Shown here piece after piece: positions 1 through 30,940 of a stretch of 64,000 bases of DNA. Source of the DNA: an uncultured Bacilli bacterium (GTDB lineage Bacteria; Bacillota_I; Bacilli_A; RFN20; CAG-288); contig CALVMW010000001.1 of assembly GCA_944349335.1 (NCBI GenBank), positions 80,309 through 144,308 on the forward strand, given 5' to 3'. The position numbers were made by a program, and so were the translations under genes. Below the pieces are notes generated by a model that ran no database searches, was not told the DNA's origin, and saw only the letters and a program-made list of their open reading frames with translations. Numbering within the stretch: position 1 is the first letter of the stretch; each line of letters begins with the position of its first letter.

Positions 1-934
1 GTTTATTACCAGCAGCTTGACTTGCAGAGATAACAGACTGATAAACAGCACCGCCGCAACCGAAGATAACTTCAGTTCCTCTCTGATACCAACTTGTGCA
101 GTATTGAGTAGCAGCAGTTGTCGCTTGGAACTCACCAGCATAATAATACTGAATATTGATAGCTCCATCCTCTAAGCCTAATTCACTAGCAGCATAGTCA
201 GCACCTTGGCAATAACCAGAACCATATCTGACAACAGCAGGGACAGCCATACCACCTAAGAAGCCTAAGTTGCGATAACCTTCTTTAACAGCAGCATAGC
301 CAGCTAAGAAACCAGACTGCTCTTCACGATAAATGATAGAAGTGATATTATCGGTATATTCATAAGCAGCGTTGCCATTATCTGAATCTTCCTTAACACA
401 ATCGAAAGCTAAGAAATGAACATCATCAAATTCACCAGAATCGATAGCTTGTTTAATAGCAGATTGGAAAAGGTAACCAGGTAAAACGATAACATCAGCA
501 CCCCAAGAATTAGCTGAGCGCATAGCTTCTAAACGGCCCTGAGTATCATAATTATCTTCTGCCGGTTGATAATAATGGGTTTGAATTAAACCATCAGAAA
601 CCATATTATCAGAACCGATAGTTCCACCACCATTAGTTACAGCGAAAGCATTGACACCATTCCATGCAGACTCATTGAAAGAGTGATCATTTAATGTTCC
701 AGAATCAGTAACTAAAGCAATTCTTAAAGGCTTTTCTTCAGTGTAATTTAATTCAGCTAATTTACCATCATCGACAGTGTTATCGGTTCCGATATCTGTT
801 TCTTCTAATTCGAAAAAATCAACTTCGTCAGTAGTAGAAGAATTATTAGAACCACTGATACTAGAAGTTGATGTACAGGAACCAAGAGCTAAAACTAAGA
901 CAGCAAGAGAGATCAAACTGAACTGCTTTTTCAT
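1..934 (-). CDS. BMP-family (PnrA-like) ABC-transporter substrate-binding lipoprotein; 3' end runs off the window
   Basis: Hand translation of the minus strand from the ATG at 932-934 gives MKKQFSLISLAVLVLALGSCTSTSS... (signal peptide plus lipobox Cys, Ser-rich tether). Downstream residues (NDHSFNESAWNGV, GADVIVLPGY, FLAFDCV) are typical of the basic-membrane-protein nucleoside-binding family. The forward 69-aa ORF at 777..986 is a shadow of this gene. Confidence 0.75.
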   Translation of the reverse strand, partial: MKKQFSLISLAVLVLALGSCTSTSSISGSNNSSTTDEVDFFELEETDIGTDNTVDDGKLAELNYTEEKPLRIALVTDSGTLNDHSFNESAWNGVNAFAVTNGGGTIGSDNMVSDGLIQTHYYQPAEDNYDTQGRLEAMRSANSWGADVIVLPGYLFQSAIKQAIDSGEFDDVHFLAFDCVKEDSDNGNAAYEYTDNITSIIYREEQSGFLAGYAAVKEGYRNLGFLGGMAVPAVVRYGSGYCQGADYAASELGLEDGAINIQYYYAGEFQATTAATQYCTSWYQRGTEVIFGCGGAVYQSVISASQAAGNK

Positions 935-1525
935 ATATTCTTTTCCTCCTTTTTATATGAAAAAAACGTCTTTCCCGAAAAAATGAGCTCGACATACTGA
1001 GCCCATTTAAACCAATTACCCCTCTAGATATTTGGAATAAATGGATAGCCCCTTATAATGGCTAAGGGCTAGAAACATGACCACCACTCTAGGTCAACTA
1101 TACCCATTTTTTCAATACTTAATTTTATCACATAATTTATTTTCACCATTTTTAATCTCTATTAAATAGAAATAAACGACTAACTTTTAACCGCTATCAT
1201 TCTAGTTTTTTTAAGATTTTTATACTATAAATTACTAAAAAGGGGTTTCATGATTTTTACAAAAAAAAGATTGACAAGGTCTAAAAAATTAAATTTTGTT
1301 AAGCTGTATATACTATAAAACCAAGATAAAAATAATCTATTTTTTCACTAAATTTACTCAAACTGATTATCAACATACTTAAAAAATAGAGTAACTATAT
1401 TAAATAGCTACTCTTTTAATATCAATAATTTTATTTTTTGGTAATTTCATTTTTCATTAAAATAGCTTGTCAATATTTTTTTAACCATCTATCATCTTCG
1501 AGACTATTAATTATCTAAAGAGATT

Positions 1526-2944
1526 CTAACCAATACAGGATAGAATCTCACTAGATTTAAGATGTTTCTTTTCATAGAGAAGCTTACCTAAAGCGCTGAT
1601 TTGATCTCTGTGTGCTTTAATATATTTAATAGTTTCTTTTTCACACTTTCTAAGTAAAGCTTCAATCTTTCTCTCCATCTTTCTTCTTTTGATAGAAGTT
1701 TCGGTTCTCTTTCCTGACACGATGTGGGGAAGAGTCTCCCAACAAGAGGAATAGCCACACATATTAAACATGTTGTAAGCATCGACTCTCGCGTCTTGTA
1801 AATCGTCCTCACATCCTCTTGAACCTCTTCCACAAATAATCTTTTGCGCAAGAACACCAGCCATCGAGATTTTAATATCGGCAATAATTTTCTCATACGG
1901 CCAAAAGTCGCTTTCAATTTCATTAGCATGAAATTCGCCACTAGCACCAGAAATATTAAGTCTATTAATCTTAAAGTACTCCGGAAATGCTTTAGCAACG
2001 ACTGCATGTCCTGCTTCATGAATAGCAACTTCTAAGTTATCTTGTTTAGGTTTATCTTTAACTCTATCAGTAATATTATAAATAGAATTATCAATCATTT
2101 CTGAAGTGATATTATCAAAGCCATTCCTTAAAACTAAATCGTTTACAACAGCTTTTACACCTGCGCAAGTGATACCATTTAATGAAAGAGCAACTTCTTC
2201 ATCAATGAAATCTTCTGGAAACTTAAGATTAAACTCATGAAAATACTTTTTGAGAATCTCTAAAGCTTCTTCACCAGTTGGATATGGTACTCTTAAGAGT
2301 TTTTCTAGTCTTCCATGACGTAATAAGGCATCAGGAATATCACTGATGCTATTAGTAGCAGTTAGAACTAAGATATCATCATAGCTTTCAACACCATCAA
2401 GGTTTTCTTGTAATGCTCGCACAACTCTTCTTTCATGATTAATGAGCAAATCTAACTCATCAATGACAATAATTGCATGATCTACTTCTCGAGCTTTTTT
2501 AAATGTTTCATTGATACCTCTAACAATATTATTTTGTTCACCTTTAAAGACAAACACTGGGCAGTCACAGCATTTAATAAACTCTTTAATAAACAGTGAT
2601 TTACCATTACCTGGTTCTCCAAAGAGAATCACACCTTTAGGAACTGAAATACCTTTTGCTTTATATTCTTTTGAATGTTTAAACCAATTAATAACACTAA
2701 GAAGCTCTTCCTTTTGAGCTTCATGACCAATTACTCTTTCTAAAGGAACTTCGCCTTCTTTAAGCTTTGAAGCATAAATAAGTTCATATGATTCTACTTC
2801 TTTTGTTGAAAGTGATTCTTTTGACTCACTTGTTAAAGTAGATTCATCAAACTCCACCCAATCTTCTAAATCTTCTTCTTTTAAGTCCTCTTGTTCTTGT
2901 TCTAATGCTTCATCTTCATTAATTTTCCTTAATTGATAGTTCAT
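1526..2944 (-). CDS. FtsH-like AAA+ ATPase / M41 zinc-metalloprotease without the N-terminal transmembrane/periplasmic region (472 aa); acidic low-complexity N-terminus
   Basis: Walker A GEPGNGKS, Walker B IVIDELD, second region of homology TATNSISDIPDALLRHGRLE, and zinc site HEAGHAVVAKAF all line up with FtsH. No hydrophobic N-terminal segment; the first ~60 aa are E/D-rich. Confidence 0.7.
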   Translation of the reverse strand: MNYQLRKINEDEALEQEQEDLKEEDLEDWVEFDESTLTSESKESLSTKEVESYELIYASKLKEGEVPLERVIGHEAQKEELLSVINWFKHSKEYKAKGISVPKGVILFGEPGNGKSLFIKEFIKCCDCPVFVFKGEQNNIVRGINETFKKAREVDHAIIVIDELDLLINHERRVVRALQENLDGVESYDDILVLTATNSISDIPDALLRHGRLEKLLRVPYPTGEEALEILKKYFHEFNLKFPEDFIDEEVALSLNGITCAGVKAVVNDLVLRNGFDNITSEMIDNSIYNITDRVKDKPKQDNLEVAIHEAGHAVVAKAFPEYFKINRLNISGASGEFHANEIESDFWPYEKIIADIKISMAGVLAQKIICGRGSRGCEDDLQDARVDAYNMFNMCGYSSCWETLPHIVSGKRTETSIKRRKMERKIEALLRKCEKETIKYIKAHRDQISALGKLLYEKKHLKSSEILSCIG

Positions 2945-3472
2945 ATTTTTCCTCGCTTTTCTCTATTATTATGAACACTTTTTTTACTTATTTTTTATAA
3001 ATTTAATTATGTCCTCATATAAGTACATCAATAAAAGTGAATAAGATAGTGTTTATATTTATAAAATACTCATTTTTTATATATTTTATTTATTTACTTT
3101 CTTCTAAAAATATCCATGTTTAATCAAATTTAACAAAAAAAATAATAAAAAAAAGAAAAAATAACATATTAAATTTTTTGATTATTGAAATGATTAAAAC
3201 TATAAAAAGTAAAAAAGTACTAATCTAACAATAACGATATATTTCTTCAAAAAAGTCTTTTGTTTTTAATTTCTATTCTTATTAAATCGACTCCTTAATC
3301 ACTTCAAAAAACAGTATTTTATTGAATATAAAATAAGAATATAAATAATTATAAATAGTCGAGTTATTTTAAACTATATAACTATTTTAATCTATATTAT
3401 CTTTAATTTATATATTCTCCATAAAATCACTATTAGAAATAAGAGAAGTGAAGAGACTATTTAAATAGTTCT

Positions 3473-3787
3473 TCAATCTCCAGAATTTCCTTGATGAGAA
3501 AGATAAGTTTCCTCTGTCTCCTCTCTTTTAAAAATATAAAAATTTTCAATTCTAGAAATCATAGTACTATTAAATGCTTTACGATAAGGATAAATACTAA
3601 TTAAATCAAATCCAGCTTCACCAATATTCTCTAAAGTTGTAAACCAAATATTATATTTTGGATTTTCATTTTCCATTTTAAGTTCTTTGATTAACCATTC
3701 TGCTGGAGGCTCTGAATTACACCAATACAAAATAGAATTTCTATAGCCATTGTCAGTAAATTTAAGATAAACATAAACTGTTTTCAT
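3473..3787 (-). CDS. hypothetical protein (104 aa), co-oriented 17 nt downstream of the 430-aa ORF
   Basis: ORF only; no motif recognised; tight spacing with the upstream gene suggests an operon. Confidence 0.4.
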   Translation of the reverse strand: MKTVYVYLKFTDNGYRNSILYWCNSEPPAEWLIKELKMENENPKYNIWFTTLENIGEAGFDLISIYPYRKAFNSTMISRIENFYIFKREETEETYLSHQGNSGD

Positions 3788-3804
3788 CGATTTAACCTCC
3801 TATT

Positions 3805-5097
3805 TTATGAATTATCTGTTAATTTAGTAATTTGTTCACTTATATCGAGATTTAATGTTTTAATGTATTTTTTAGCATGGTTAAAATAAAAATTATATAA
3901 TTTTTTGTTGATCATTTCGGGCCCTACTACGACAACCATATCGGAAATGTTAATATTTCCGTTACCATGTACATCACTTACAAGCCAGGACATGAAAGCA
4001 TCTGGATCAATATAAGTATTTACTACAAAATATTTCGGATCTTCACCTTCTTTAAGGGGATGAGGAATAATATAGTCAGCTTGATTGTCATTTGGATCAA
4101 TATTTTTAAGCTCATTAATATCAAATGAAGTACAAGAAACACAAGCAAATTTTGTAGAGAAGAACTCTTCATATGATCTTTTTACAAATTTAAAAAATGG
4201 TTTTCTAACATAGAAACTTGTTCTGATCGCTTCACCGCTGATAGGCATTTTATTTTCTTCGATCATTGTTTCTAATGAATCATAGTGTTTTTTAGCATAT
4301 TTAGATTTCTCTCTAAACAATTTTTCTAAATCTCTATTTTCATCAAAATCAGCGCATAATACTTCTTTATCTGAACCATCGGGTACATTAAGATTTTCGA
4401 TAGTATCAAATATATATCCCTTAAAAAAGATAAAGTCTCCAGTATCGATTGGTAATAAAAGTGCATATAGTTTATTTCGGTATTCTTTAATCTTATAAAC
4501 TCTATACCAAAAGTCATAGAAATAAATATCAGGACTCTTAAAACCACGTATTTTAAATCTGATTTTCAACATCTTTCCTTCAGTAAATGCCTTATTGACA
4601 AGCCTTATTTTTCTACTAGTAGCAATATTATATTTATTTACTCCTTTTTTAAGCTTCTTTAACTCATTTTTATAATAGCTTCGGTTATGAATATTTGATA
4701 AAGAGTCTAATAATCTTTCTATCAAAAAATCTGTATCCTCATCCTTTGTAAATTTATCATTTTGAACCGCTGCTAAAATTTTTAAAATTTGCTCTTCACT
4801 TAAATAATATTTCTGCTCAATATAATACTTGCCTGATTTTGTTACTTCTAAGACAAAAGGAACTACATCAGAAAATTTAGTGGTAACTTCCATTAAAAAT
4901 CTAAGACAGTCCCCGATTCTTTGTCTTCTAACATCATTACCCTTTTTGGCCTTAGCATCGTATTTTAAACCGAAGTCATTAGCGTGTCGACAAATATCTT
5001 GTTGTGTGGCTGGATGGTTTTCATCAGTAAATCTTAGCAAATAGTCCAGAGTAAGCAATAATTCTATTTGATGGATTCTAGTGTCTGAATTTCCCAT
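3805..5097 (-). CDS. hypothetical protein (430 aa) with N-terminal winged-HTH-like segment and a central WYL-like segment; possible BrxR/CapW-type regulator with a long C-terminal extension
   Basis: N-terminus RIHQIELLLTLDYLLRFTDENHPATQQDICRHA resembles the HTH_11 region of WYL regulators. Central KIRFKIRGFKSPDIYFYDFWYRVYKIKEYRNKLYALLLPIDTG resembles a WYL domain core. Inference from motif resemblance only. Confidence 0.45.
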   Translation of the reverse strand: MGNSDTRIHQIELLLTLDYLLRFTDENHPATQQDICRHANDFGLKYDAKAKKGNDVRRQRIGDCLRFLMEVTTKFSDVVPFVLEVTKSGKYYIEQKYYLSEEQILKILAAVQNDKFTKDEDTDFLIERLLDSLSNIHNRSYYKNELKKLKKGVNKYNIATSRKIRLVNKAFTEGKMLKIRFKIRGFKSPDIYFYDFWYRVYKIKEYRNKLYALLLPIDTGDFIFFKGYIFDTIENLNVPDGSDKEVLCADFDENRDLEKLFREKSKYAKKHYDSLETMIEENKMPISGEAIRTSFYVRKPFFKFVKRSYEEFFSTKFACVSCTSFDINELKNIDPNDNQADYIIPHPLKEGEDPKYFVVNTYIDPDAFMSWLVSDVHGNGNINISDMVVVVGPEMINKKLYNFYFNHAKKYIKTLNLDISEQITKLTDNS

Positions 5098-5524
5098 ATT
5101 ATTCCTCCACGCTTAAATGATAATATATGAAAAAAGTATAACACACACATTTTTAATTATGTACTTATATAAGAACGATAAATATTCTTAACTTTCTAAC
5201 TAATATTAAAATTACTTTAGTTACAAACCAAAATTTTGAAATTTTTAATACTCTCTTTTAGCCTTAGTTAAATATAAGACATAATCCATAAAATCATAAT
5301 TTAGAATTTAAAAATAAGCTTATAGGTTAAATAAAGTTTAAAATATAGATTATTATTTTTTAGTGACAACACACAGACCATTTCCACATGAGTACTAAAT
5401 CAAAAAATATCCCCACAAAATAACGAAAATATAAGAAATATTTCTGTAGTACTAATACTGTTCGTACAACCCTTTTCCCACAAAATATAGATTCCATCAA
5501 TTTTGCGTTTCCTTGATGCAAAAT

Positions 5525-6540
5525 CTACTCCTCACTATCAATATTATCTTCCACTGTCTTTATAGATTCCAGGGCTTGATATTCCTGTTTTAATTCTCGA
5601 AGCAATTCTTCCTCGCTTGGTAAATACAATTTGTATTTTGACGCAAAAATCTGTGTTTCATTTTCAGGTAACGTATACTTAACTACAGACTCACTTTTAT
5701 CTGCGCACAAAACAATGCCAATCGGTGGATTGTCTCCCTCATTCATAAGTTCTCGCTCATAATAATGAACATACATCTGCATCTGTCCTAAATCCTGATG
5801 TGTTAAGTCTCCAACTTTTCAATCTATCAAAACAAAACACTTTAAAATGTAATTATAAAATACAAGATCAATTCTAAAATGCCGCCCATCAAATGTTATT
5901 CTTTTCTGTCTTGCAACAAATGAAAATCCTATGCCAAGTTCCAAAATAAATTTCTGTAAATGTGTAATTAGAGCTTGTTTTAAATCACTTTCATAAAAAT
6001 CTTCATTCGGTGTCAGTCCAAGAAATTCTAATACATATGGGTCACGGATGACATCTTCAGGTTTCTTCATCGGCTCTAAAGCCTGTATTTCCTGTGAAAC
6101 TTGCTCCTTATTTTTACTGGATAATAATCTTTCATAAAAGAAGGAATTTATCTGACGCTCAAGTTGTCTGGTACTCCATTGAGACTTTACAGCTTCCTGC
6201 ATATAAAATTCTCGTGCATTTTCATTCTCTACTCGCATTAGAAGGCGATAGTGCGTCCAACTCAATCCGCTACGCAGTGCGTAGCCATTTGGAAATGTTA
6301 AATAAAATTGCCTCATATTTTTCAAATTTGCAACGGTAAATCCTTTACCAAAATCTCGTGTCATTTGCTTTGACAACTCTTTTAATAAGCCTGTACCATA
6401 CTTAGCTTTTCCATTGCCACCTTGTTCTTCAATGATTGATTTTCCTATATTCCAATAGGCTTCAACCATTGCAAAATTAGCCGTTTGATAGACTTTATTT
6501 CTCGCTGTGGTTCAAATATTCTTTATTTCATCATAGAATT
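5525..6540 (-). pseudogene. YhcG/DUF1016-family PDDEXK nuclease, disrupted (two in-frame TGA codons, degraded start)
   Basis: The 216-aa (5819..6469) and 85-aa (5525..5782) track ORFs are in the same frame, separated by an in-frame TGA at 5819-5821 (...CFVLID*KVGDLTHQDLGQMQMY...). The N-terminal homology RNKVYQTANFAMVEAYWNIGKSIIE continues upstream of the annotated Met to a second in-frame TGA (...FYDEIKNI*TTARNKVY...) with no usable start. Matching residues include YWNIGK, NLKNMRQFY, RIDLVFYN and a DUF1016 C-terminal tail. Confidence 0.6.
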
Positions 6541-6574
6541 TTTAATTCATATACAATCCTCTTTTCTGAGATTT

Positions 6575-8584
6575 TTAAGATGGCATATTATCTTCGATAA
6601 TTTGTTTTATAATATCAAACACTAAATGAAATTCTGAAAAATCAATATTCTTCATTTCCTCACTCTCCGTGTAGATTGCCTTTGCAAATTCCATTTTGGA
6701 CAAAGCCAAATTAACCTTATTTTCATCTTTAATACTAAATACTCTTTTTTCCGATTGTCCGTCGATAATACAAATTTTCCCATGCCCACAACTATTTCTA
6801 TCCAAGCACATATAGTTCTTATCATTTGACAAACCAAATTCATCAAATTCCCGTCCCATATATATCCTTCTTGGAATACCATTAATCTCTATGGCTCTTT
6901 GTAAATCATCATCTAAATAATAATGTTCAATACACACTTGCTGCGTTTCTAATCTATGCTTTGGTATAGGCAAAATCATAGAATATACATTATTTTTCCA
7001 TATTTTGTACCTTCCTTCCACAGTTAATTGTTTGCTTGTATTTCTATCATCGGCATCAGCAACGAATATTATTTTTCGTGATTGCTGTACCTTTTCAAAT
7101 TCTTTGCACATTGTAACAAGATTAGAAGAACTCATATCTAATTTGGGGAGGTCATTGCTTTTAGAATTTTTAGGATTGTACTCAAGGAACTCTATGTCCA
7201 AATCATTATATTTTTTCTCCTGATTCTGAAAATAACGTAAAGCGGCTTTAAGATGCCTCCAGTCAGTTGCCCCTTCTGTTACAACTAAAGTCTTCTGCGT
7301 TCTATTTTGAATTGCATTTTTAATTTCTGATTGATATTTTTCTGTATTAGTCATATATGTGTATGCCTTCTTAAATTCTGTAAATCCTTCTGATGAGATT
7401 ATTTCTGCATTTGGCATCTGGTATATGTAATATCCATCTTTCCCATATTGTTCATCCATTCCTAACAGAAAAAGCGGGGAATGTGTCGTTATTATAAATT
7501 GTACTTTTGGAAATAATTTAAGCAATTTTGGTAACACCTCCCTCTGTAGTTTCGAATGTAAATGCAGTTCTATTTCATCAATAACAACAATCCCTTCTAT
7601 TTCATAATTCTTAATGCTTCTATTTATATCATTACTATCAGCATATCGTATAATCGTGGCAAACATATTAAACAATGCACTTTGTCCCGTTGATAATGCA
7701 TCCAATGTTGGGATTATGACTTTGTTGCTTTGACTATCAAAAATATTAAATCTTGATCCATACGCAGAACGAAAATTTAATCCAAAATATATATCTCTAC
7801 CGAGTATTTCCCCCATGACCTTTTCAATATTTTCTCTTGCAATATTCAATATCAATGCTTCGTTCACATCAACATGTGCAACTTGTAATCCAGTATTAGT
7901 TTTTTTTATATCCACTCTTGAATCCACAATGACATCCAAAAGCCACTTTAATGTTTCTTCCGTTACATTTTTTACTGAGATTGGCGTATTTAACTTTCCA
8001 TCATACCGATTTCTAATCATTATGTGCATGTCTGAGTCTTGCTCAGACACATAATATTTTTTCCCCATCCACTGGGGTCTTTCATATCTATCTGGTCCGA
8101 AATAACAAAAAATATTTTTCTCAAATACTTTTTCTATTTCTTTTTTTGAAATAAAAATATCTTTAAAATTTTCCTCATCTTTCCATATCCTTTTATTTTT
8201 TAATTCAACCCCTGTTTCAAGATGAAATTCATCATAAGTTAATTTGCCACTCTTAAATATATACTGACCTGCAGTATCTTCCTTATTAGATTCACAAAAT
8301 TCGATATAGGATATCATAAACTCATGACCAATATTTATCTCAGACGGAAGAATAGCTTTATAATATTGATAGCCTTCTCCATCTCTCTCTTGAACATTAT
8401 TGTAGACTTTTCCGGCCATTTCATAAAATGCATCAACTATGTTAGATAGTACTGTCGATTTTCCAGAACCATTTTCTCCGACTAATACAACGGGTTTAGG
8501 TGTATTATCACTATTTTTTCCAAAACTAATATTAACCCTTTCAGTAGGTCCAATGTTTCTATTATAAATAGATTTTATTTGCAC
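6575..8584 (-). CDS. OLD-family ABC-type ATPase fused to a C-terminal Toprim (DUF4435-like) nuclease domain; length and architecture fit a single-polypeptide PARIS (AriA-AriB) defence protein or a class-1 OLD nuclease
   Basis: N-terminal Walker A VLVGENGSGKSTVL; ABC-type Walker B/H-loop VVIDEIELHLH...FIITTHSPLFL; C-terminal LVVTEGATDWRHLKAA (Toprim Glu) and IIFVADADDRN (DxD). Intact 669-aa ORF. Confidence 0.65.
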   Translation of the reverse strand: MQIKSIYNRNIGPTERVNISFGKNSDNTPKPVVLVGENGSGKSTVLSNIVDAFYEMAGKVYNNVQERDGEGYQYYKAILPSEINIGHEFMISYIEFCESNKEDTAGQYIFKSGKLTYDEFHLETGVELKNKRIWKDEENFKDIFISKKEIEKVFEKNIFCYFGPDRYERPQWMGKKYYVSEQDSDMHIMIRNRYDGKLNTPISVKNVTEETLKWLLDVIVDSRVDIKKTNTGLQVAHVDVNEALILNIARENIEKVMGEILGRDIYFGLNFRSAYGSRFNIFDSQSNKVIIPTLDALSTGQSALFNMFATIIRYADSNDINRSIKNYEIEGIVVIDEIELHLHSKLQREVLPKLLKLFPKVQFIITTHSPLFLLGMDEQYGKDGYYIYQMPNAEIISSEGFTEFKKAYTYMTNTEKYQSEIKNAIQNRTQKTLVVTEGATDWRHLKAALRYFQNQEKKYNDLDIEFLEYNPKNSKSNDLPKLDMSSSNLVTMCKEFEKVQQSRKIIFVADADDRNTSKQLTVEGRYKIWKNNVYSMILPIPKHRLETQQVCIEHYYLDDDLQRAIEINGIPRRIYMGREFDEFGLSNDKNYMCLDRNSCGHGKICIIDGQSEKRVFSIKDENKVNLALSKMEFAKAIYTESEEMKNIDFSEFHLVFDIIKQIIEDNMPS

Positions 8585-8675
8585 TTTATCAAAAACTCCT
8601 TCCTATCTTTATCACAATAGTTTTCTATCTCTTATACTTATACATAGTACTCAAATATTATAGTTATCCTATTGT

Positions 8676-8864
8676 TCAAAAAAACCTTAATGCATCCTTT
8701 ATTGCTCCCACTTTCTCCACTGTTGAATATTTCCTCGAATGTTTAAATTCTTCTACCGCATTAGAGGCATCATACATTGGCAAACCCAAACTTCTTTTTA
8801 CCTCTGCTATATAAGCGGTAAGTACCTTGAATCCATGATTAGCTTCTATGTATTTATTTATCAT
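8676..8864 (-). other. small ORF / possible gene remnant immediately 3' of rlmD; its reading frame extends upstream without a start and overlaps the rlmD stop
   Basis: 62-aa track ORF; the same frame translates further 5' (…VRVEFGEREGKISLDNIVKRAEACKPKERVTYKMINKY…) with no Met; no family recognised. Confidence 0.2.
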
Positions 8865-8976
8865 TTTGTAGGTGACTCGCTCTTTCGGCTTGCACGCCTC
8901 GGCTCTTTTAACGATATTATCAAGCGATATTTTGCCCTCTCTCTCGCCAAACTCGACTCTTACACTGATTGTACTG

Positions 8977-10320
8977 TCAGGTTTTTTTGTGGGAAAGCAG
9001 TACTACTGTCTCTACGTGAAGAGTAAAAGGAAACATATCGACTGGTGTCACTCTTTTTACTTCATAATAGTCTTTTAATACATTTATATCGCGGGCTAAT
9101 GTGACAGGATCACAAGAAACATATACTACCTTTTGAGGTCTCAAATTAATTAATGATTGCAAAAATTCTACTGTCGCTCCTTTTCGAGGTGGATCCATGA
9201 TGACAACTGAAAAAGGAATCGTCGTTTTTTGCATAAATTCAGTGCAATCATCAGCGATGAAGTGAGCATTAAAAATATTATTAATTTTAGCGTTAATTTT
9301 AGCATCAGCGACAGCTTGTTTAACAATTTCAACTCCATAAACTTCTTTTACTTCTCTAGCACAAGATAAGCCGATCGTTCCAGTTCCACAATAGGCATCA
9401 AGAAGGATGTCATCTTTATTTAATTCAGCTCCTTTAATAGCTAAAGAATATAAATTTTCAACCTGTTTAGAATTAACTTGATAAAAAGAGTGTGAAGAAA
9501 TCAAAAACTTGTTGGTGAATATTTGATCTTTGATTCTTGTATACCCATATATAGGGACATCTTTTTCACCAAGAATAACATTAGTATGTCGATTATTAAT
9601 ATTAAAAACTACCCCTTTAACTTCAGAAATTTTTGAAATTAAGCGTTTAGCAAATTCTTTTCGGCCTTTTAATTTAGCATCTTTTACAACTATTGTAACT
9701 AATGCTTCTGATGAATCTGAGTTAGTTTTAATCAGTAAATGGCGAATATCACCTTCCATAGTATCTTCATCATAAGGTTTATATTTAAATTCTTGAAAGA
9801 GTTTTAAAGTATAATTAGTTATCTTTGTAGCTAGATTACTCTCCAATAAACATGAAGAAATAGGAACTAATTTATGAGTATTTAATGAATAATAACCAGC
9901 AGCGATTTTACCTTGAACTAACTTAATAGGCTTTTGAACTTTATTGCGATAATGATAGGGTGAAGCTAATGAGATTGTATCATCTACATCAATATCTAAA
10001 GAAGCAAATTTTTTAAATAGATTCTTAACTTTTTCCTTTTTATATTTTAATTGTTCTTTATAATCTAAATGCATAAGCTGACAGCCTCCGCATTTAGGAT
10101 AATAAGGACAAGGAGAATTAACTCTAAAAGGTGAAGATTTTAATCTTTTAATCACTTTAACATCTTTTAATTTTCCGTACTCAAAAGTCGTCTCAATGAG
10201 AGCCTTCTCTTGAGGCAACATGTCAGGAATAAATATTGTCTTATTATCTAAATAAGCGATTCCTCTTCCAAAATCATCTAGTGAGAGGATAGTTACTTCA
10301 TTTACTCTTTTACTCATCAT
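8977..10320 (-). CDS. rlmD: 23S rRNA (uracil-C5)-methyltransferase, RumA/RlmD family (TRAM + Fe-S + SAM methyltransferase)
   Basis: N-terminal TRAM-like beta region, Cys cluster CPYYPKCGGCQLMHL, SAM motif LLDAYCGTGTIGL, and C-terminal catalytic region DPPRKG...VSCDP. Confidence 0.8.
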   Translation of the reverse strand: MMSKRVNEVTILSLDDFGRGIAYLDNKTIFIPDMLPQEKALIETTFEYGKLKDVKVIKRLKSSPFRVNSPCPYYPKCGGCQLMHLDYKEQLKYKKEKVKNLFKKFASLDIDVDDTISLASPYHYRNKVQKPIKLVQGKIAAGYYSLNTHKLVPISSCLLESNLATKITNYTLKLFQEFKYKPYDEDTMEGDIRHLLIKTNSDSSEALVTIVVKDAKLKGRKEFAKRLISKISEVKGVVFNINNRHTNVILGEKDVPIYGYTRIKDQIFTNKFLISSHSFYQVNSKQVENLYSLAIKGAELNKDDILLDAYCGTGTIGLSCAREVKEVYGVEIVKQAVADAKINAKINNIFNAHFIADDCTEFMQKTTIPFSVVIMDPPRKGATVEFLQSLINLRPQKVVYVSCDPVTLARDINVLKDYYEVKRVTPVDMFPFTLHVETVVLLSHKKT

Positions 10321-11431
10321 CTAATCCATCGATAGGTCCAATCTTCTCTTTAAGAATATCTGAAACCATCTTTACATCTTCTAAATAAAACAAAGAACGT
10401 TCTTTTTCTTCTTTATGCATAACGAAATAAATCTTCATATATTTTAAATATAATTCAGCGATCCTTACATATGATTGATAAGTCATAGCAAGTGATAAGT
10501 CTTTGCAAAATTCATCGTTAACATAGAAAAAAGCCGAAGAAGAGTGGGCAATTTCACTAGCACCCTCATAGATTTTTGAATATTTTGATAATTCAGCAAG
10601 CTTTTCAACTCCATCGCGGAAGTTTAATTTAAAGCAGGCATCATTAGGATCAAATTTAGGATGAGAATAAAGCCAACCATATTCGATAAATTTTTTCATA
10701 TCTTTGCTCTTTAAGCCGTGTTCTTTCATATTTTCTTTGATCTGGGCAAAGATAATATCTAGTTCTTCTTGCGCAAAATTATCTTTATTTCTATAAGCAT
10801 TATTATAACTTATATGAGTTAAATAATCGCGGCGGCATTTTTCATCACCATCAACTAAAAGTTTTAAAACACATTCAGATTCATGCAATGTTCGCCAAGA
10901 GACAAAGGCATCAGGAAAAAGACCTAAGTTAAGCATTTTTAAAAAACCAGTAACCTTCTTAAAAACAGTTTCAAAAATATCGCTTACTAAAGAAGTAGAA
11001 GGATTAACTAGAGCCAGAGGAGAATTGATATGTTCTAAATAATCGACTGATGATTGCAAAATAGAAACATAGGGATCAGATGGTTCTATTCCAGTATTTA
11101 TATTATTTTTTGAATACGCTAAATATTCGTCATACCTTTTTAATAAATTGTTGACAACATCATAATTTTTCTTTTTCTTCTCATAATCAGGAATGAGTTT
11201 TAACTTTTTATATTCGCTGATAAGCATATCGATAAAAGAAGTTAATCTTCTTCTGATCTCAAAAGCCGAAAGTCCTTCAAAAGAGTTATTATAGCGACTA
11301 AAAATCTGTTTAATAGTCTTTTTCCCCATCTCTAAAATTCCCGCAACATCTGTGTCGCTTAAATCATGAGCTTGGAATTTGATCATATCGATGACGATTA
11401 AATCGAAGGTAGTTGTATTTATTTTTTCCAT
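10310..11431 (-). CDS. hypothetical protein (373 aa), possible N-terminal HTH
   Basis: ORF overlaps its neighbours by 11-13 nt (operon-like); SDTDVAGILEMGKKTIKQIF could be an HTH; nothing else recognised. Confidence 0.4.
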   Translation of the reverse strand: MEKINTTTFDLIVIDMIKFQAHDLSDTDVAGILEMGKKTIKQIFSRYNNSFEGLSAFEIRRRLTSFIDMLISEYKKLKLIPDYEKKKKNYDVVNNLLKRYDEYLAYSKNNINTGIEPSDPYVSILQSSVDYLEHINSPLALVNPSTSLVSDIFETVFKKVTGFLKMLNLGLFPDAFVSWRTLHESECVLKLLVDGDEKCRRDYLTHISYNNAYRNKDNFAQEELDIIFAQIKENMKEHGLKSKDMKKFIEYGWLYSHPKFDPNDACFKLNFRDGVEKLAELSKYSKIYEGASEIAHSSSAFFYVNDEFCKDLSLAMTYQSYVRIAELYLKYMKIYFVMHKEEKERSLFYLEDVKMVSDILKEKIGPIDGLDDE

Positions 11432-12534
11432 AGATCCCTCATAACTATATATGACTCAATTAAGGTCGAACCTATATTATAACCTCCGCAAGGAAGATTA
11501 ACATCTAAAACTTCACCGATAGCATATAGATTCTTATCTTCTTTTGAGGAAAAATTATGATTTAATAACTCTATATTAATACCACCATATGAGACCTGCG
11601 AATCTTTAAAAGGATAAAAATCCTGGAAATGAAAGAGAAGTTTACTATTTTTTATTTTATTCTTTTTTAGATATTCGATTAAAAATTTAGGATAAGCTGA
11701 TAAATCAGATATTAATTTAAACCCTTGGTATCTAGAAAAATCGATTTGAATAGATATTTCGTCTTTATTATATCCATCCTTTATCAGTTCATTAATATAT
11801 AAAGATAGGTTCATGATCACAATCCCAGATAAACCATCTTCCTTAAAGAGAACTTCGCCTTCTTCAGAATAAATTATCTTTCCCTTAACTAAGAGTGAAC
11901 AATTTCCTCTCAACCTTTGATTTTTTAAGCTAAAAGTTTTTTCTCTTACTTTTATTGGAACTAAAGAAGGAGAAAAAGGTCTATATGGTATCCTAAGTGA
12001 ATCAAGCAAACTGTAATCTACCTCTCTATCATAAGAAAAACCACCGGGAGCAAAGATTATTTTATCGTAAGGCTTAACTGACTTTTTTTCATTTGCAATA
12101 TAAGTGACTTCTTTTTTTATCCTATCAATTTTAATCACGTCATTAAAATTAACTGATATATGACTATCAATTTTCGATATTAAAAAATTGTAAATTGATT
12201 CAGAGCGATTAAAGAAAGGATAATATAAATCACCTTCTTTATAATATGAAAAAGAAAGTTTATCAGTTAAATAATGAAAAAAAGCATTAGGAAAATCTTC
12301 TCTATTAAAGAAGAAATCTTTTAGTTTATGCAAATAAAAGACATCATAATTATCACTATTTAAAAGTTTTTCATTGAAAAAATTACAGCGCCCATTACCA
12401 GCGACTAAAATTCTTCTTGCTAATATATCATTTTTTCTTTTTTTATCAAAAATGGTTATATGATATTTACTAGATAATTCAATAGCAGGAATCAAAGAAG
12501 AAATACCGCCACCTATGATGACTAATTCATCCAT
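11419..12534 (-). CDS. NAD(P)/FAD-dependent oxidoreductase, HI0933/BaiN-like flavoprotein family
   Basis: N-terminal dinucleotide-binding fold LVIIGGGISSL...IFDKK and the GNGRCNF motif characteristic of the HI0933 family. Confidence 0.65.
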   Translation of the reverse strand: MDELVIIGGGISSLIPAIELSSKYHITIFDKKRKNDILARRILVAGNGRCNFFNEKLLNSDNYDVFYLHKLKDFFFNREDFPNAFFHYLTDKLSFSYYKEGDLYYPFFNRSESIYNFLISKIDSHISVNFNDVIKIDRIKKEVTYIANEKKSVKPYDKIIFAPGGFSYDREVDYSLLDSLRIPYRPFSPSLVPIKVREKTFSLKNQRLRGNCSLLVKGKIIYSEEGEVLFKEDGLSGIVIMNLSLYINELIKDGYNKDEISIQIDFSRYQGFKLISDLSAYPKFLIEYLKKNKIKNSKLLFHFQDFYPFKDSQVSYGGINIELLNHNFSSKEDKNLYAIGEVLDVNLPCGGYNIGSTLIESYIVMRDLWKK

Positions 12535-28522: not shown

Positions 28523-30940
28523 TCATTCTATAGATTTAAGTGATTCACTCATACTTATTTTTTTCATCTTTAATGAAAGAAGATAAGACACTAAAATACT
28601 AACAACAAAGGAAATTATAAAAGCGATCAGATATGTATACCAATAGATATGATAAACGAAATTTAAGAGGTTAGTCTGATTGACATATAGTACTAATACC
28701 GTCAAAGGATATCCAGCAATTAAACCTAAAACAGTACCAATAAAAACATCGACCATCATTTCATAGGTTAAAGTTTTAGCAATCTCTTTAAAGCGGAAGC
28801 CTAAAACTTTTAAAGTAGCGATCTCTCTAGTCCTTTCAGTAATATTTAAAGAAGTTAAATTATAAATAACAACAATTGAGAGAACAATAGCAAAAGCCTT
28901 GATCACATTAGTCATAACCATAATCGAAGAGAGGATTGAATTTATGTATTCATCGATATTTTCTTTTGTATTGATCGATAAAAAATTATATTCTAGAGAA
29001 ATTTCTTCCTTAAATTCACTTCTAGAAACACCTTCTTCTAACTGGACGTATACTAAACTAGGTTCATGTTCCTCATCATTTACTTTATAAATACCAAAGA
29101 GAAAAGAAGTTTCAAAAACATCTCTAATAACTTCTTTACTAGTATTACTGCCTTCGATCACTGTTAGTGTATCACCAATATTAACACCTAAGTCCTCGGC
29201 AGTTTTAGCATCTATAGTTATACCATCAGCATAAACAGGAATACTATATATATTAGATTCCGCTTCGATATAATAAATTGTACTAGCAATATTTGATTCA
29301 CCGATAAGAGTACAGTCTTCACTAAAGACACCTTCAAGATTTTTTACTCTTTCATCATCTTTTAGTTGTTTTAAAGCCGCATCTTGATTTAAACCAGGAA
29401 CGATCAATATATCCATCTTAACATTCTGACCATAATCTAAAGCGATATCATAATTTAAAGTATCCATGATGCCAAAGCCGCAGACTAAAAGAGATGTACA
29501 GCCAAAAAGGCCTAAGACAACCATCAGAGATTTACCTTTATTCATCAAGATATTTCTTAAAGCTAAACGCCAAGAAATATTGGTTTTTTTGCTTAAGAAT
29601 TCTTCATTTTTCGCTTTGAATTTAACATTCTTTTCTTTAGGTCTTAAAGTAGCAACTGGCTTCTCTTTTATTAAAGAGTGCGATATTAAAAAAGAACAGA
29701 TAAAAGCTAATAAAATAAGAATTAGAGTTATACAGATAGATAAGGGATAAAAAAAGTGAACAGATGCAAAAGGTATATCCCATAAAAGAGTATATTTTAT
29801 TCCAAGGACATTAGGTATAAATAATGGACCGATAAAGAAACCGAGAATAGAACCTAAAGCGCAGATACTCATTCCATAAATAGAATAATGAAGATATATC
29901 TGTCTTTTTTTAACACCGATAGCTTTTAATGTTCCTATATCGGGACGCGATTTTAAGATTAATTGCGATAAAGTTGTTAAAATTACTAAGACTGAAACTA
30001 AAAAGAAGATTATTGGAAAAACATAAGTGAGGTATTCTGATTGATGAACTTCACGATTTAAATCAGCGATAGATGAAATATCTTCTCCTTTTTGAATAGC
30101 TAATAGATCGTCACTAGAAGAAAATAATTCCTCGACATCTAAGATTGTCGTATCAATATTTGCAGTAGTAATTAAAACTTGACTTGCTAATGAATCGATG
30201 TTTTCATTTATCAATGTTTCAATATCATAAGAAAATATGGCTAAAAACGAAGAGATTTTTTCAACATCAAAATTAGAATTTAAGACATTTAAAAAAGAGG
30301 AGACCAGTTCATCTTTTTGAATATAAAAAGAAGGGGCTGAAAAGTTAGCACTCTGACACGCTTCAATAAAATACATCGTGCCAGTAATAGTAAAATTAAG
30401 AGATAGATCACCCTTTTTAAAAACATTTTCTTTTCCATCTAAGACAAAATTATCCAATAGATTAGTAATCTCACTGAAACTCGATAGATAAGTGCTATCT
30501 ATCGTTAGAGAGATCGTATCACCGATCTTTAGAGCATAATTTTCTAAAAAAGAAGAAGTAACTAATACCCCTTTTTCACCTTCCTTAATGATCGGAGTAG
30601 ACAATTCTTCACTATCAAGAGGAGTGTATAAATATGACAAAACATTATCATACTTAATCGGTGCATATATTCTTCTATCGATCTTTTCAATACCATCTAA
30701 AGAAAAAAGAGAATTATATTTTTCCTCATCTATTCGCTGCATCGTTAAATAAACGTCAGCAAGATTAGAACCATCATAAAGAATCTCAGTTCTATTTTTT
30801 ATATTCATCGCATTTGAATACAGCCCTGAAAATAAGCAAATAGCTAAAAAGGATATACAAAATAAAGATATAAGTTGCTTCCAATTTTTCAAAAGATTTC
30901 TTAGAAGCAATTTAAACATTATTAGTGAGGTTTTCATCAA
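28523..30940 (-). CDS. ABC transporter permease, FtsX/MacB-like (805 aa, two FtsX modules with large extracytoplasmic domains)
   Basis: Multiple TM clusters separated by large hydrophilic domains; overlaps and follows the ATPase gene. Confidence 0.75.
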   Translation of the reverse strand: MMKTSLIMFKLLLRNLLKNWKQLISLFCISFLAICLFSGLYSNAMNIKNRTEILYDGSNLADVYLTMQRIDEEKYNSLFSLDGIEKIDRRIYAPIKYDNVLSYLYTPLDSEELSTPIIKEGEKGVLVTSSFLENYALKIGDTISLTIDSTYLSSFSEITNLLDNFVLDGKENVFKKGDLSLNFTITGTMYFIEACQSANFSAPSFYIQKDELVSSFLNVLNSNFDVEKISSFLAIFSYDIETLINENIDSLASQVLITTANIDTTILDVEELFSSSDDLLAIQKGEDISSIADLNREVHQSEYLTYVFPIIFFLVSVLVILTTLSQLILKSRPDIGTLKAIGVKKRQIYLHYSIYGMSICALGSILGFFIGPLFIPNVLGIKYTLLWDIPFASVHFFYPLSICITLILILLAFICSFLISHSLIKEKPVATLRPKEKNVKFKAKNEEFLSKKTNISWRLALRNILMNKGKSLMVVLGLFGCTSLLVCGFGIMDTLNYDIALDYGQNVKMDILIVPGLNQDAALKQLKDDERVKNLEGVFSEDCTLIGESNIASTIYYIEAESNIYSIPVYADGITIDAKTAEDLGVNIGDTLTVIEGSNTSKEVIRDVFETSFLFGIYKVNDEEHEPSLVYVQLEEGVSRSEFKEEISLEYNFLSINTKENIDEYINSILSSIMVMTNVIKAFAIVLSIVVIYNLTSLNITERTREIATLKVLGFRFKEIAKTLTYEMMVDVFIGTVLGLIAGYPLTVLVLYVNQTNLLNFVYHIYWYTYLIAFIISFVVSILVSYLLSLKMKKISMSESLKSIE

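Follow-up and report, generated by a model that had tools for sequence, protein, structure and literature searches.

Organization of the locus

The 64-kb window analysed here (64,000 nucleotides of contig CALVMW010000001.1 from an uncultured Bacilli bacterium) contains a two-gene operon that had been read, from its sequence alone, as encoding a 430-aa protein with winged helix-turn-helix (wHTH) and WYL-like segments and a 104-aa protein matching no recognised family. Both open reading frames (ORFs) were confirmed exactly, at 3805-5097 (minus strand, 430 aa, ATG start) and 3473-3787 (minus strand, 104 aa, ATG start); the gap between them was 17 bp, a GGAGG was located ahead of each, and the same two genes had been called in public assemblies of identical sequence. 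The gene order predicts that the 104-aa gene is co-transcribed with that of the 430-aa protein. The spacers bounding the operon, put earlier at about 430-530 bp and AT-rich, measured 427 bp (5098-5524) and 528 bp (2945-3472), with a GC content of 0.22 across 3001-4000 in the AT-rich spacer region. Downstream, on the same strand, was a gene for a soluble FtsH-like AAA+/M41 metalloprotease of 472 aa (1526-2944; PF00004 and PF01434). Analysis of the 430-aa protein, of its relatives and of the DNA upstream of their genes suggests that it is probably a sequence-orphan regulator of the wHTH-linker-WYL-WCX class, similar to DriD and PafBC, with a local regulon that includes the FtsH-like protease. 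DriD of Caulobacter crescentus and PafBC of Actinobacteria are WYL-domain transcription activators that sense single-stranded DNA (ssDNA).

Family and predicted fold of the 430-aa protein

Homologues of the 430-aa protein formed 171 clusters, indicating that the ORF is a real conserved gene, and a family profile retrieved 169 representatives from 1.84 billion proteins, the sources being uncultured Bacilli of gut and rumen. It was also noticed that loci L007, L010, L014, L017, L021 and L024 had a low-GC Bacilli-type gene set in bins labelled Prevotellaceae, Alistipes, Bacteroidaceae or Paludibacteraceae; these labels reflect either binning contamination or horizontal spread. Pfam helix-turn-helix models had no match among 40 aligned homologues and 10 distant relatives, and searches of PADLOC and PHROGs gave nothing significant for the 430-aa protein, the latter returning one weak family of unknown function.

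An AlphaFold2 model was built on 40 homologues (pLDDT, the model's confidence score, 85.9). When it was compared with known structures by Foldseek, the top 19 matches were all WYL regulators (PafBC, DriD, CapW or BrxR), with E-values of 1.3e-6 for PafBC and 2.4e-6 for DriD and with full-length, collinear alignments of 415-427 columns. In the model, the product of this gene (family designation fam0) would consist of a wHTH in residues 1-96 (4810-5097; modelled wHTH fold in residues 5-96), a helical linker or bundle in residues 97-173 (4579-4809; helices 101-112, 122-133, 139-148 and 158-173), a beta-rich WYL-like domain in residues 174-246 (4360-4578) holding the segment FWYRVYKIKEY...LYALLLP, and an enlarged alpha/beta C-terminal domain in residues 247-430 (3808-4359) with a WCX-equivalent part and extra elements, all encoded on the minus strand. 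The predicted model thereby has the N-terminal wHTH and, after the linker, an Sm/SH3-like beta-barrel WYL domain in the same chain order. The block YFYDFWYRVYKIKEY...LYALLLP, previously picked out as resembling a WYL ligand-sensing domain, was present and lay inside the modelled beta-rich domain, at residues 175-232. The C-terminal "extension", said to match no family, indeed matched no hidden Markov model (HMM), yet it appears to include a WCX-equivalent part: 176 of the 203 residues of a DriD WYL+WCX fragment could be aligned to the model.

Conservation was unevenly distributed along the chain. The wHTH was the most conserved domain, with a mean identity of 70%, and the C-terminal domain the fastest-evolving, with 37%. 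The predicted recognition helix spans residues 58-74, with the motif N54-D-V-R57-R58-Q-R60, in which N54, R58 and R60 were invariant. On the WYL-like strands R199, Y201 and A212 were invariant, which as a sign of WYL ligand binding is suggestive only.

Some members of the family were longer. In the long regulator forms P0039-P0108 (583-596 aa; L020, L032, L045, L047 and L048), about 140 aa were added at the C-terminus as a P-loop domain matching nSTAND3/AAA_16. Some of these forms had an intact Walker A (GxxGxGKT), whereas in many it was degenerate (GPAYETGR). In family member P0197, LRR_5 repeats stood in place of the C-terminal P-loop domain.

A conserved palindrome upstream of the regulator and of other genes

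Upstream regions of family members were aligned across 49 non-redundant loci drawn from genomes and metagenomes. The alignment revealed an 18-bp palindrome, TGTACnnATAnnnGTACA (consensus TGTACTnATATnAGTACA), with the layout TGTAC-N8-GTACA, at 76-90 nt from the regulator ATG in 38 of the 49 loci. A position weight matrix (PWM) trained on these regulator-upstream sites was then used with a threshold score of at least 17, and Markov-1 resamples served as the control; it found 70 sites in 620 kb (55 loci), compared with 0-1 in the resamples. Sixty of the sites had a nearby ORF, and 42 of these were situated 70-89 nt ahead of its start. Of all the sites, 27 preceded non-regulator genes, among them those of the FtsH-like protease and of a mini PolIII-alpha-like protein, and hence lay outside the matrix training set.

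The 64-kb window contained exactly two intergenic operator sites. O1 (cGTTCTTATATAAGTACA, 5160-5177), found by pattern search, was located 80 nt before the regulator ATG and had a PWM score of 19.8. O2 (TGTACTTATATGAGGACA, 3010-3027), an exact match to TGTNCNNATANNNGNACA, was located 83 nt before the ATG of the FtsH-like gene and was the top-scoring site of the window, with a PWM score of 25.1, whereas 20 shuffles reached at most 17.8. A third pattern match, at 29930-29947, was discarded as a chance occurrence, being inside an 805-aa ORF and having a score within the shuffle range. A generic inverted-repeat finder run on the AT-rich spacers gave weak AT-rich pairs only, and the operator surfaced through the cross-locus comparison. 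A palindrome that is enriched, stands at a constant distance from start codons and co-varies with the protein (below) is what would be anticipated in silico for an inverted repeat at promoters that is bound by a dimer.

Co-variation between the recognition helix and the operator arms

Proteins with VRRQR at the recognition helix were associated with TGTAC arms, and those with [VI]KRQR were associated with TGTCC arms, position 57 being R or K, respectively. TGTCC arms were found in 6 of 6 K lineages versus 1 of 30 R lineages (p 3.6e-6 by a Fisher test, which ignores phylogeny). A neighbour-joining tree showed at least two independent R/K switches, and a K-type clade (L020/L047/L048) with arms AGTCCC...GGGACT was nested among R-type proteins. 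Taken from the sequences, this co-variation is the signature of direct protein-DNA contact.

Two further loci bear on the same position. In L037 (1555-2805) the co-varying residue was D (VDRRR) and the arms were of a third type, TGGGC...GCACA, consistent with residue 57 setting half-site specificity. In L017 (6078-9353) the regulator gene was found in tandem, as two full copies and a fragment; one copy was K-type and one R-type, each downstream of a palindrome of the matching type.

The FtsH-like protease and the wider putative regulon

In the FtsH-like protein the Walker A, Walker B and HEAGH motifs are intact, and no transmembrane segment was found (maximum hydropathy 1.52). It shares with FtsH the AAA and Peptidase_M41 domains and the intact Walker A, Walker B and HEXXH motifs; however, an acidic N-terminus of 60 aa replaces the transmembrane/periplasmic one, the score against the FtsH equivalog TIGR01241 was 143 bits and fell short of the 600-bit cut-off, and the gene is encoded in variable islands under a WYL-type operator. 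Among the 29 loci that had 3 kb or more of flank, 16 had it downstream of the regulator on the same strand, as did three more loci; starting from the protease, a family member was found within 9 kb in three of four sampled loci. The palindrome was present 83-86 nt upstream of nearly every FtsH-like gene, also in loci sampled from the protease side and in L059, which has the site and no regulator within 9 kb. Across loci, the protease retained 70-81% identity where the regulator retained 41-54%. The protease, which the sequence-only reading had taken as a boundary of the pair, thus appears from this gene order to form the conserved module together with the regulator.

Fuller arrays add mini PolIII-alpha-like, sigma-70 region 4, FtsK-gamma/HAD_SAK_2, ADP-ribosylglycohydrolase, NADAR, Doc-like and leucine-rich repeat (LRR) proteins, and several of the added genes lie behind their own operator copies. 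The mini PolIII-alpha-like family (400-645 aa) was distantly related to the palm and fingers of PolC/PolIII-alpha (weak PF07733 and PF17657), with no PHP, exonuclease or OB parts. Its genes (L006:9361-10581, L011:2745-4673, L017:9427-11364, L032:9846-11132, L056:11326-12663 and others) usually followed the regulator directly, often with their own operator; in L004 the gene was broken into three fragments. No trace of the mini-Pol gene or of another array gene was found when the 528-bp spacer was searched, and PHROGs detected no phage hallmark genes among array members.

A co-directional set downstream of the FtsH-like gene was also seen to recur (L016, L019, L031, L032, L045, L046, L052 and L059-L061). 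It comprised an FtsK_gamma+HAD_SAK_2 protein, an ADP-ribosylglycohydrolase, an AAA_5 ATPase with two unknown proteins and a second S-adenosylmethionine synthetase-like gene, and NADAR and Doc-like proteins were encoded near it. The predicted functions suggest that its theme may be the reversal of nucleic-acid or protein modification.

The 104-aa small protein

Homologues of the 104-aa protein amounted to one other cluster in 5.8 billion sequences, together with same-position copies in L003 and L004. The gene was confined to the closest relatives, L001-L004, and the slot after the regulator held unrelated genes in the other loci. The protein had no HMM match; a PADLOC match to Cas11f (E 0.019) was set aside as noise. 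Its model, made from a 2-sequence alignment, resembled GFRP and the KCTD H1 domain at the level of fold only, with 13% identity, and no GTP cyclohydrolase gene was found near it. The 104-aa protein may be a small protein-binding modulator. Its gene is lineage-specific accessory cargo rather than a conserved partner, so that the idea of a co-occurring pair did not survive the comparison of loci, and nothing pointed to the pair as an effector module.

Promoter geometry and direction of control

In regulator promoters, a -10 element (TATACT or TATAAT) was found 18-19 nt after the site in 15 of 29 cases, often TG-extended, so that the site covers the -35 position. In the window, a putative extended -10, TGtTATACT (5135-5143, minus strand), lies 19 nt after O1, and a second -10-like element, TATCAT (5117-5122, minus strand), lies 37 nt after it; this second element, 36-37 nt from the site, has the spacing seen in target promoters. 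There, a -10 (cATATAAT or TATAAT) was found 36-38 nt after the site in 20 of 30 cases, the TG extension was scarce (TGn in 5 of 30) and the -35 was poor. The putative -10 of the FtsH-like gene, CATAAT (2968-2973, minus strand), is 36 nt after O2. A generic promoter scan gave nothing above shuffles.

A site at a fixed position and the lack of a recognisable -35 are also features of the promoters that DriD regulates (PMC13004042). The site 36-38 nt upstream of a good -10, the poor -35 and a fold nearest to the activators DriD and PafBC together make activation the likelier mode at target promoters, although for the direction of control, as inferred, the chances are about even.

Relationship to known WYL regulators

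Between the wHTH and the WYL domain, the repressors BrxR and CapW have a helix-beta-hairpin, in place of which DriD has a three-helix bundle (PMC10853764). The linker of the 430-aa model consisted of four helices (residues 101-173) that match the position of the three-helix bundle, and no beta-hairpin, the dimerisation element of BrxR and CapW, was found in it. The sequence-only reading had proposed a regulator of the BrxR/CapW type; the wHTH-WYL class was borne out, whereas by its helical linker and its best structural matches the subclass appeared nearer to DriD and PafBC.

The 430-aa protein nevertheless differs from DriD and PafBC in several respects. No sequence similarity to either was detectable, it is 430 aa long versus about 320-330 aa, its C-terminal domain is twice as large, and its operator, TGTAC-N8-GTACA, is different. 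The target site here is 36-38 nt upstream of the -10, whereas theirs is over the -35 position; the spacing is fixed here too, at 36-38 nt for targets and 18-19 nt for the regulator's own promoter. Its regulon would be a local, variable array in defence islands, in contrast to the dispersed DNA-repair genes controlled by DriD and PafBC. With regard to BrxR, Pfam WYL finds BrxR but not the 430-aa family, and the BrxR box lies downstream of the -10, whereas sites here are also found upstream of target promoters. A location beside known anti-phage systems was shared with BrxR and CapW, but the genes apparently controlled here are not known systems.

Proposed mechanism and alternative explanations

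Binding of the 430-aa protein to TGTAC-N8-GTACA, presumably as a dimer, is strongly supported in silico. As a copy of the operator, O1, sits at the regulator's own promoter, it is proposed that the regulator autoregulates the operon that it shares with the 104-aa gene, whose product would be an accessory passenger in this lineage. O2, upstream of the FtsH-like promoter, would make the protease a second controlled gene, and from the placement of O1 and O2 the regulator and the protease would be a single module under local control. If DriD, PafBC and CapW are a guide, the WYL domain may sense a small nucleic-acid-type ligand, such as ssDNA arising from DNA damage or phage attack, and thereby switch the regulon, with activation at the targets and autoregulation at its own promoter.

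Several points weigh against this reading. The assignment to the WYL class stood at the level of fold, by the AlphaFold2 model and Foldseek, but each of the HMM tests that had been suggested for it was negative. Neither the window protein nor any of 39 homologues and 10 distant relatives matched PF13280 (WYL) at E<=1, NCBIfam was silent for the 430-aa protein, the family profile search of 1.84 billion proteins never reached canonical WYL proteins, and a PDB-sequence profile search of the family returned noise (mitofusin, E 0.11). An hhalign comparison of the family profile with BrxR from pEFER gave a probability of 0.2%; as a control, Pfam WYL was detected in the same BrxR at E 1.4e-13. The fold assignment thus depends on a predicted model, in which the C-terminal domain, at about 184 aa, is about double the WCX of DriD (about 82 aa). 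The disregard of phylogeny in the test on R/K57 and the arms belongs here as well. The proposed promoter elements, ligand and direction of control are all putative, and the C-terminal P-loop and LRR fusions of some members hint at roles beyond simple regulation.

The alternative closest to what had been proposed earlier is a repressor of the BrxR/CapW type, which would keep the operon and the protease off until a ligand frees the protein from DNA. BrxR and CapW are wHTH-WYL-WCX repressors that adjoin BREX, CBASS and other defence genes (PMC9122601, PMC11662680), and the 430-aa protein shares their overall fold class and a defence-island location, while O1, over the -35 position of a TG-extended -10 promoter, would suit autorepression. 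This explanation is nonetheless rather unlikely in view of the helical-bundle linker of the model, of the kind seen in DriD and PafBC, of best structural matches that are activators, and of target sites that fall outside the core promoter, at 36-38 nt upstream of the -10, in promoters with a weak -35; the operator of BrxR, by comparison, is downstream of the -10 (PMC9122601). If instead another factor bound the palindrome, the 430-aa protein could be a non-regulatory partner of the FtsH-like protease, for example its substrate adaptor or sensor, an idea to which the tight genomic association with the protease, the P-loop and LRR fusions and the presence of a site in L059, where no family member lies within 9 kb, all lend themselves. 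It is hard to reconcile with a recognition-helix residue that co-varies with the half-site, with a wHTH that is the most conserved domain and with a site that in 38 of 49 loci accompanies the gene at a fixed distance, and we consider it improbable.

The same operator and co-variation, which indicate DNA-binding regulation, speak against the view that the 430-aa and 104-aa proteins constitute a new two-gene effector module of defence. The two genes are predicted to be co-transcribed, neither product has an HMM match and they lie in a defence island; however, the 104-aa gene occurs only in the closest relatives, its slot elsewhere holds unrelated genes and no catalytic domain was seen in either model, so that such a module is very improbable. 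Least probable of all would be a replication or partition protein of an integrated mobile element, for which the palindromes would be iteron-like. The wHTH does have similarity to ScpB, and a mini PolIII-alpha-like gene is often adjacent, but the island of the window has neither integrase nor tRNA, no relatives were found in viral contigs, and the sites are single, about 80 nt from the start codons of many different genes and followed by -10 elements. The DriD/PafBC-like regulator with a local regulon is therefore the reading that we retain as probable.

With this regulator at its centre, the local regulon could, tentatively, be an undescribed inducible conflict- or damage-response system of gut Bacilli, switched on by the WYL sensor, though we would put this at somewhat less than an even chance. 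Its proposed members, each behind its own operator, would be the highly conserved soluble FtsH-like protease, in fuller versions the mini PolIII-alpha-like nucleotidyltransferase, the FtsK-gamma/HAD phosphatase, the ADP-ribosylglycohydrolase, and NADAR, Doc-like and LRR proteins. The window would then represent the minimal form, with regulator, lineage-specific small protein and protease. Literature searches for a system combining WYL with an FtsH-like/M41 protease found nothing relevant.

Neighbouring genes and island setting

The operon had been placed between the OLD-like gene and the FtsH-like protease. This was correct on the protease side; on the other side a split YhcG/DUF1016 PD-(D/E)xK nuclease gene, previously unmentioned, intervenes (5525-5782 and 5819-6469, minus strand; ORFs of 85 aa and 216 aa; PADLOC candidate PDC-S02). 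It is probably a pseudogene, because the nuclease domain is interrupted. Upstream of it is the OLD-like ATPase-Toprim gene (6575-8584, minus strand, 669 aa), the product of which combines a PtuA/AAA_21-like ATPase as N-terminal half with a C-terminal half that was matched by retron RT-Toprim (type I-C) models in their Toprim part; by its domains it looks like a single-gene OLD-like nuclease. An unannotated 62-aa ORF (8676-8864) precedes this gene.

The defence-island setting held both here, where the genes beside the regulator are the OLD/PtuA-like ATPase and YhcG, and in many related loci, where McrBC, AlwI and type IIG restriction-modification systems, GmrSD, Cas9 loci, PDC-M33A and a reverse transcriptase fusion were found near family members. 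The island is bordered by an rlmCD-like methyltransferase gene on one side and a Bmp/ABC transporter operon on the other, and in several genomes the position after the rlmCD-like gene is likewise taken by the island, with differing contents. Scans of 1-12000 for tRNA and Rfam families gave no match.

Just outside the island, a gene for a 373-aa DUF5677 protein (10310-11431, minus strand) adjoins the rlmCD-like gene and overlaps both of its neighbours by a few bases. It was further noticed that an 11-nt exact direct repeat, CCCACAAAATA (plus strand), is present twice (5412-5422 and 5477-5487), with 65 nt from one copy to the other, in the distal portion of the 427-bp spacer that precedes the regulator gene.

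Significance

Both bacterial immunity and non-SOS responses to DNA damage are increasingly found to be switched by WYL regulators. The family of the 430-aa protein is invisible to current HMMs and is consequently missed by annotation pipelines and by defence-island surveys. For this family, four testable items emerge from the sequences: an operator, a promoter geometry, a regulon and a candidate for the residue that sets specificity (R/K57, with A/C as its counterpart in the half-site). Within the regulon, the soluble, strongly conserved FtsH-like protease and the mini PolIII-alpha-like protein stand out as effector candidates of these uncultured Bacilli from gut and rumen, and the regulon offers an entry point to a possible new inducible system, which may represent new biology.

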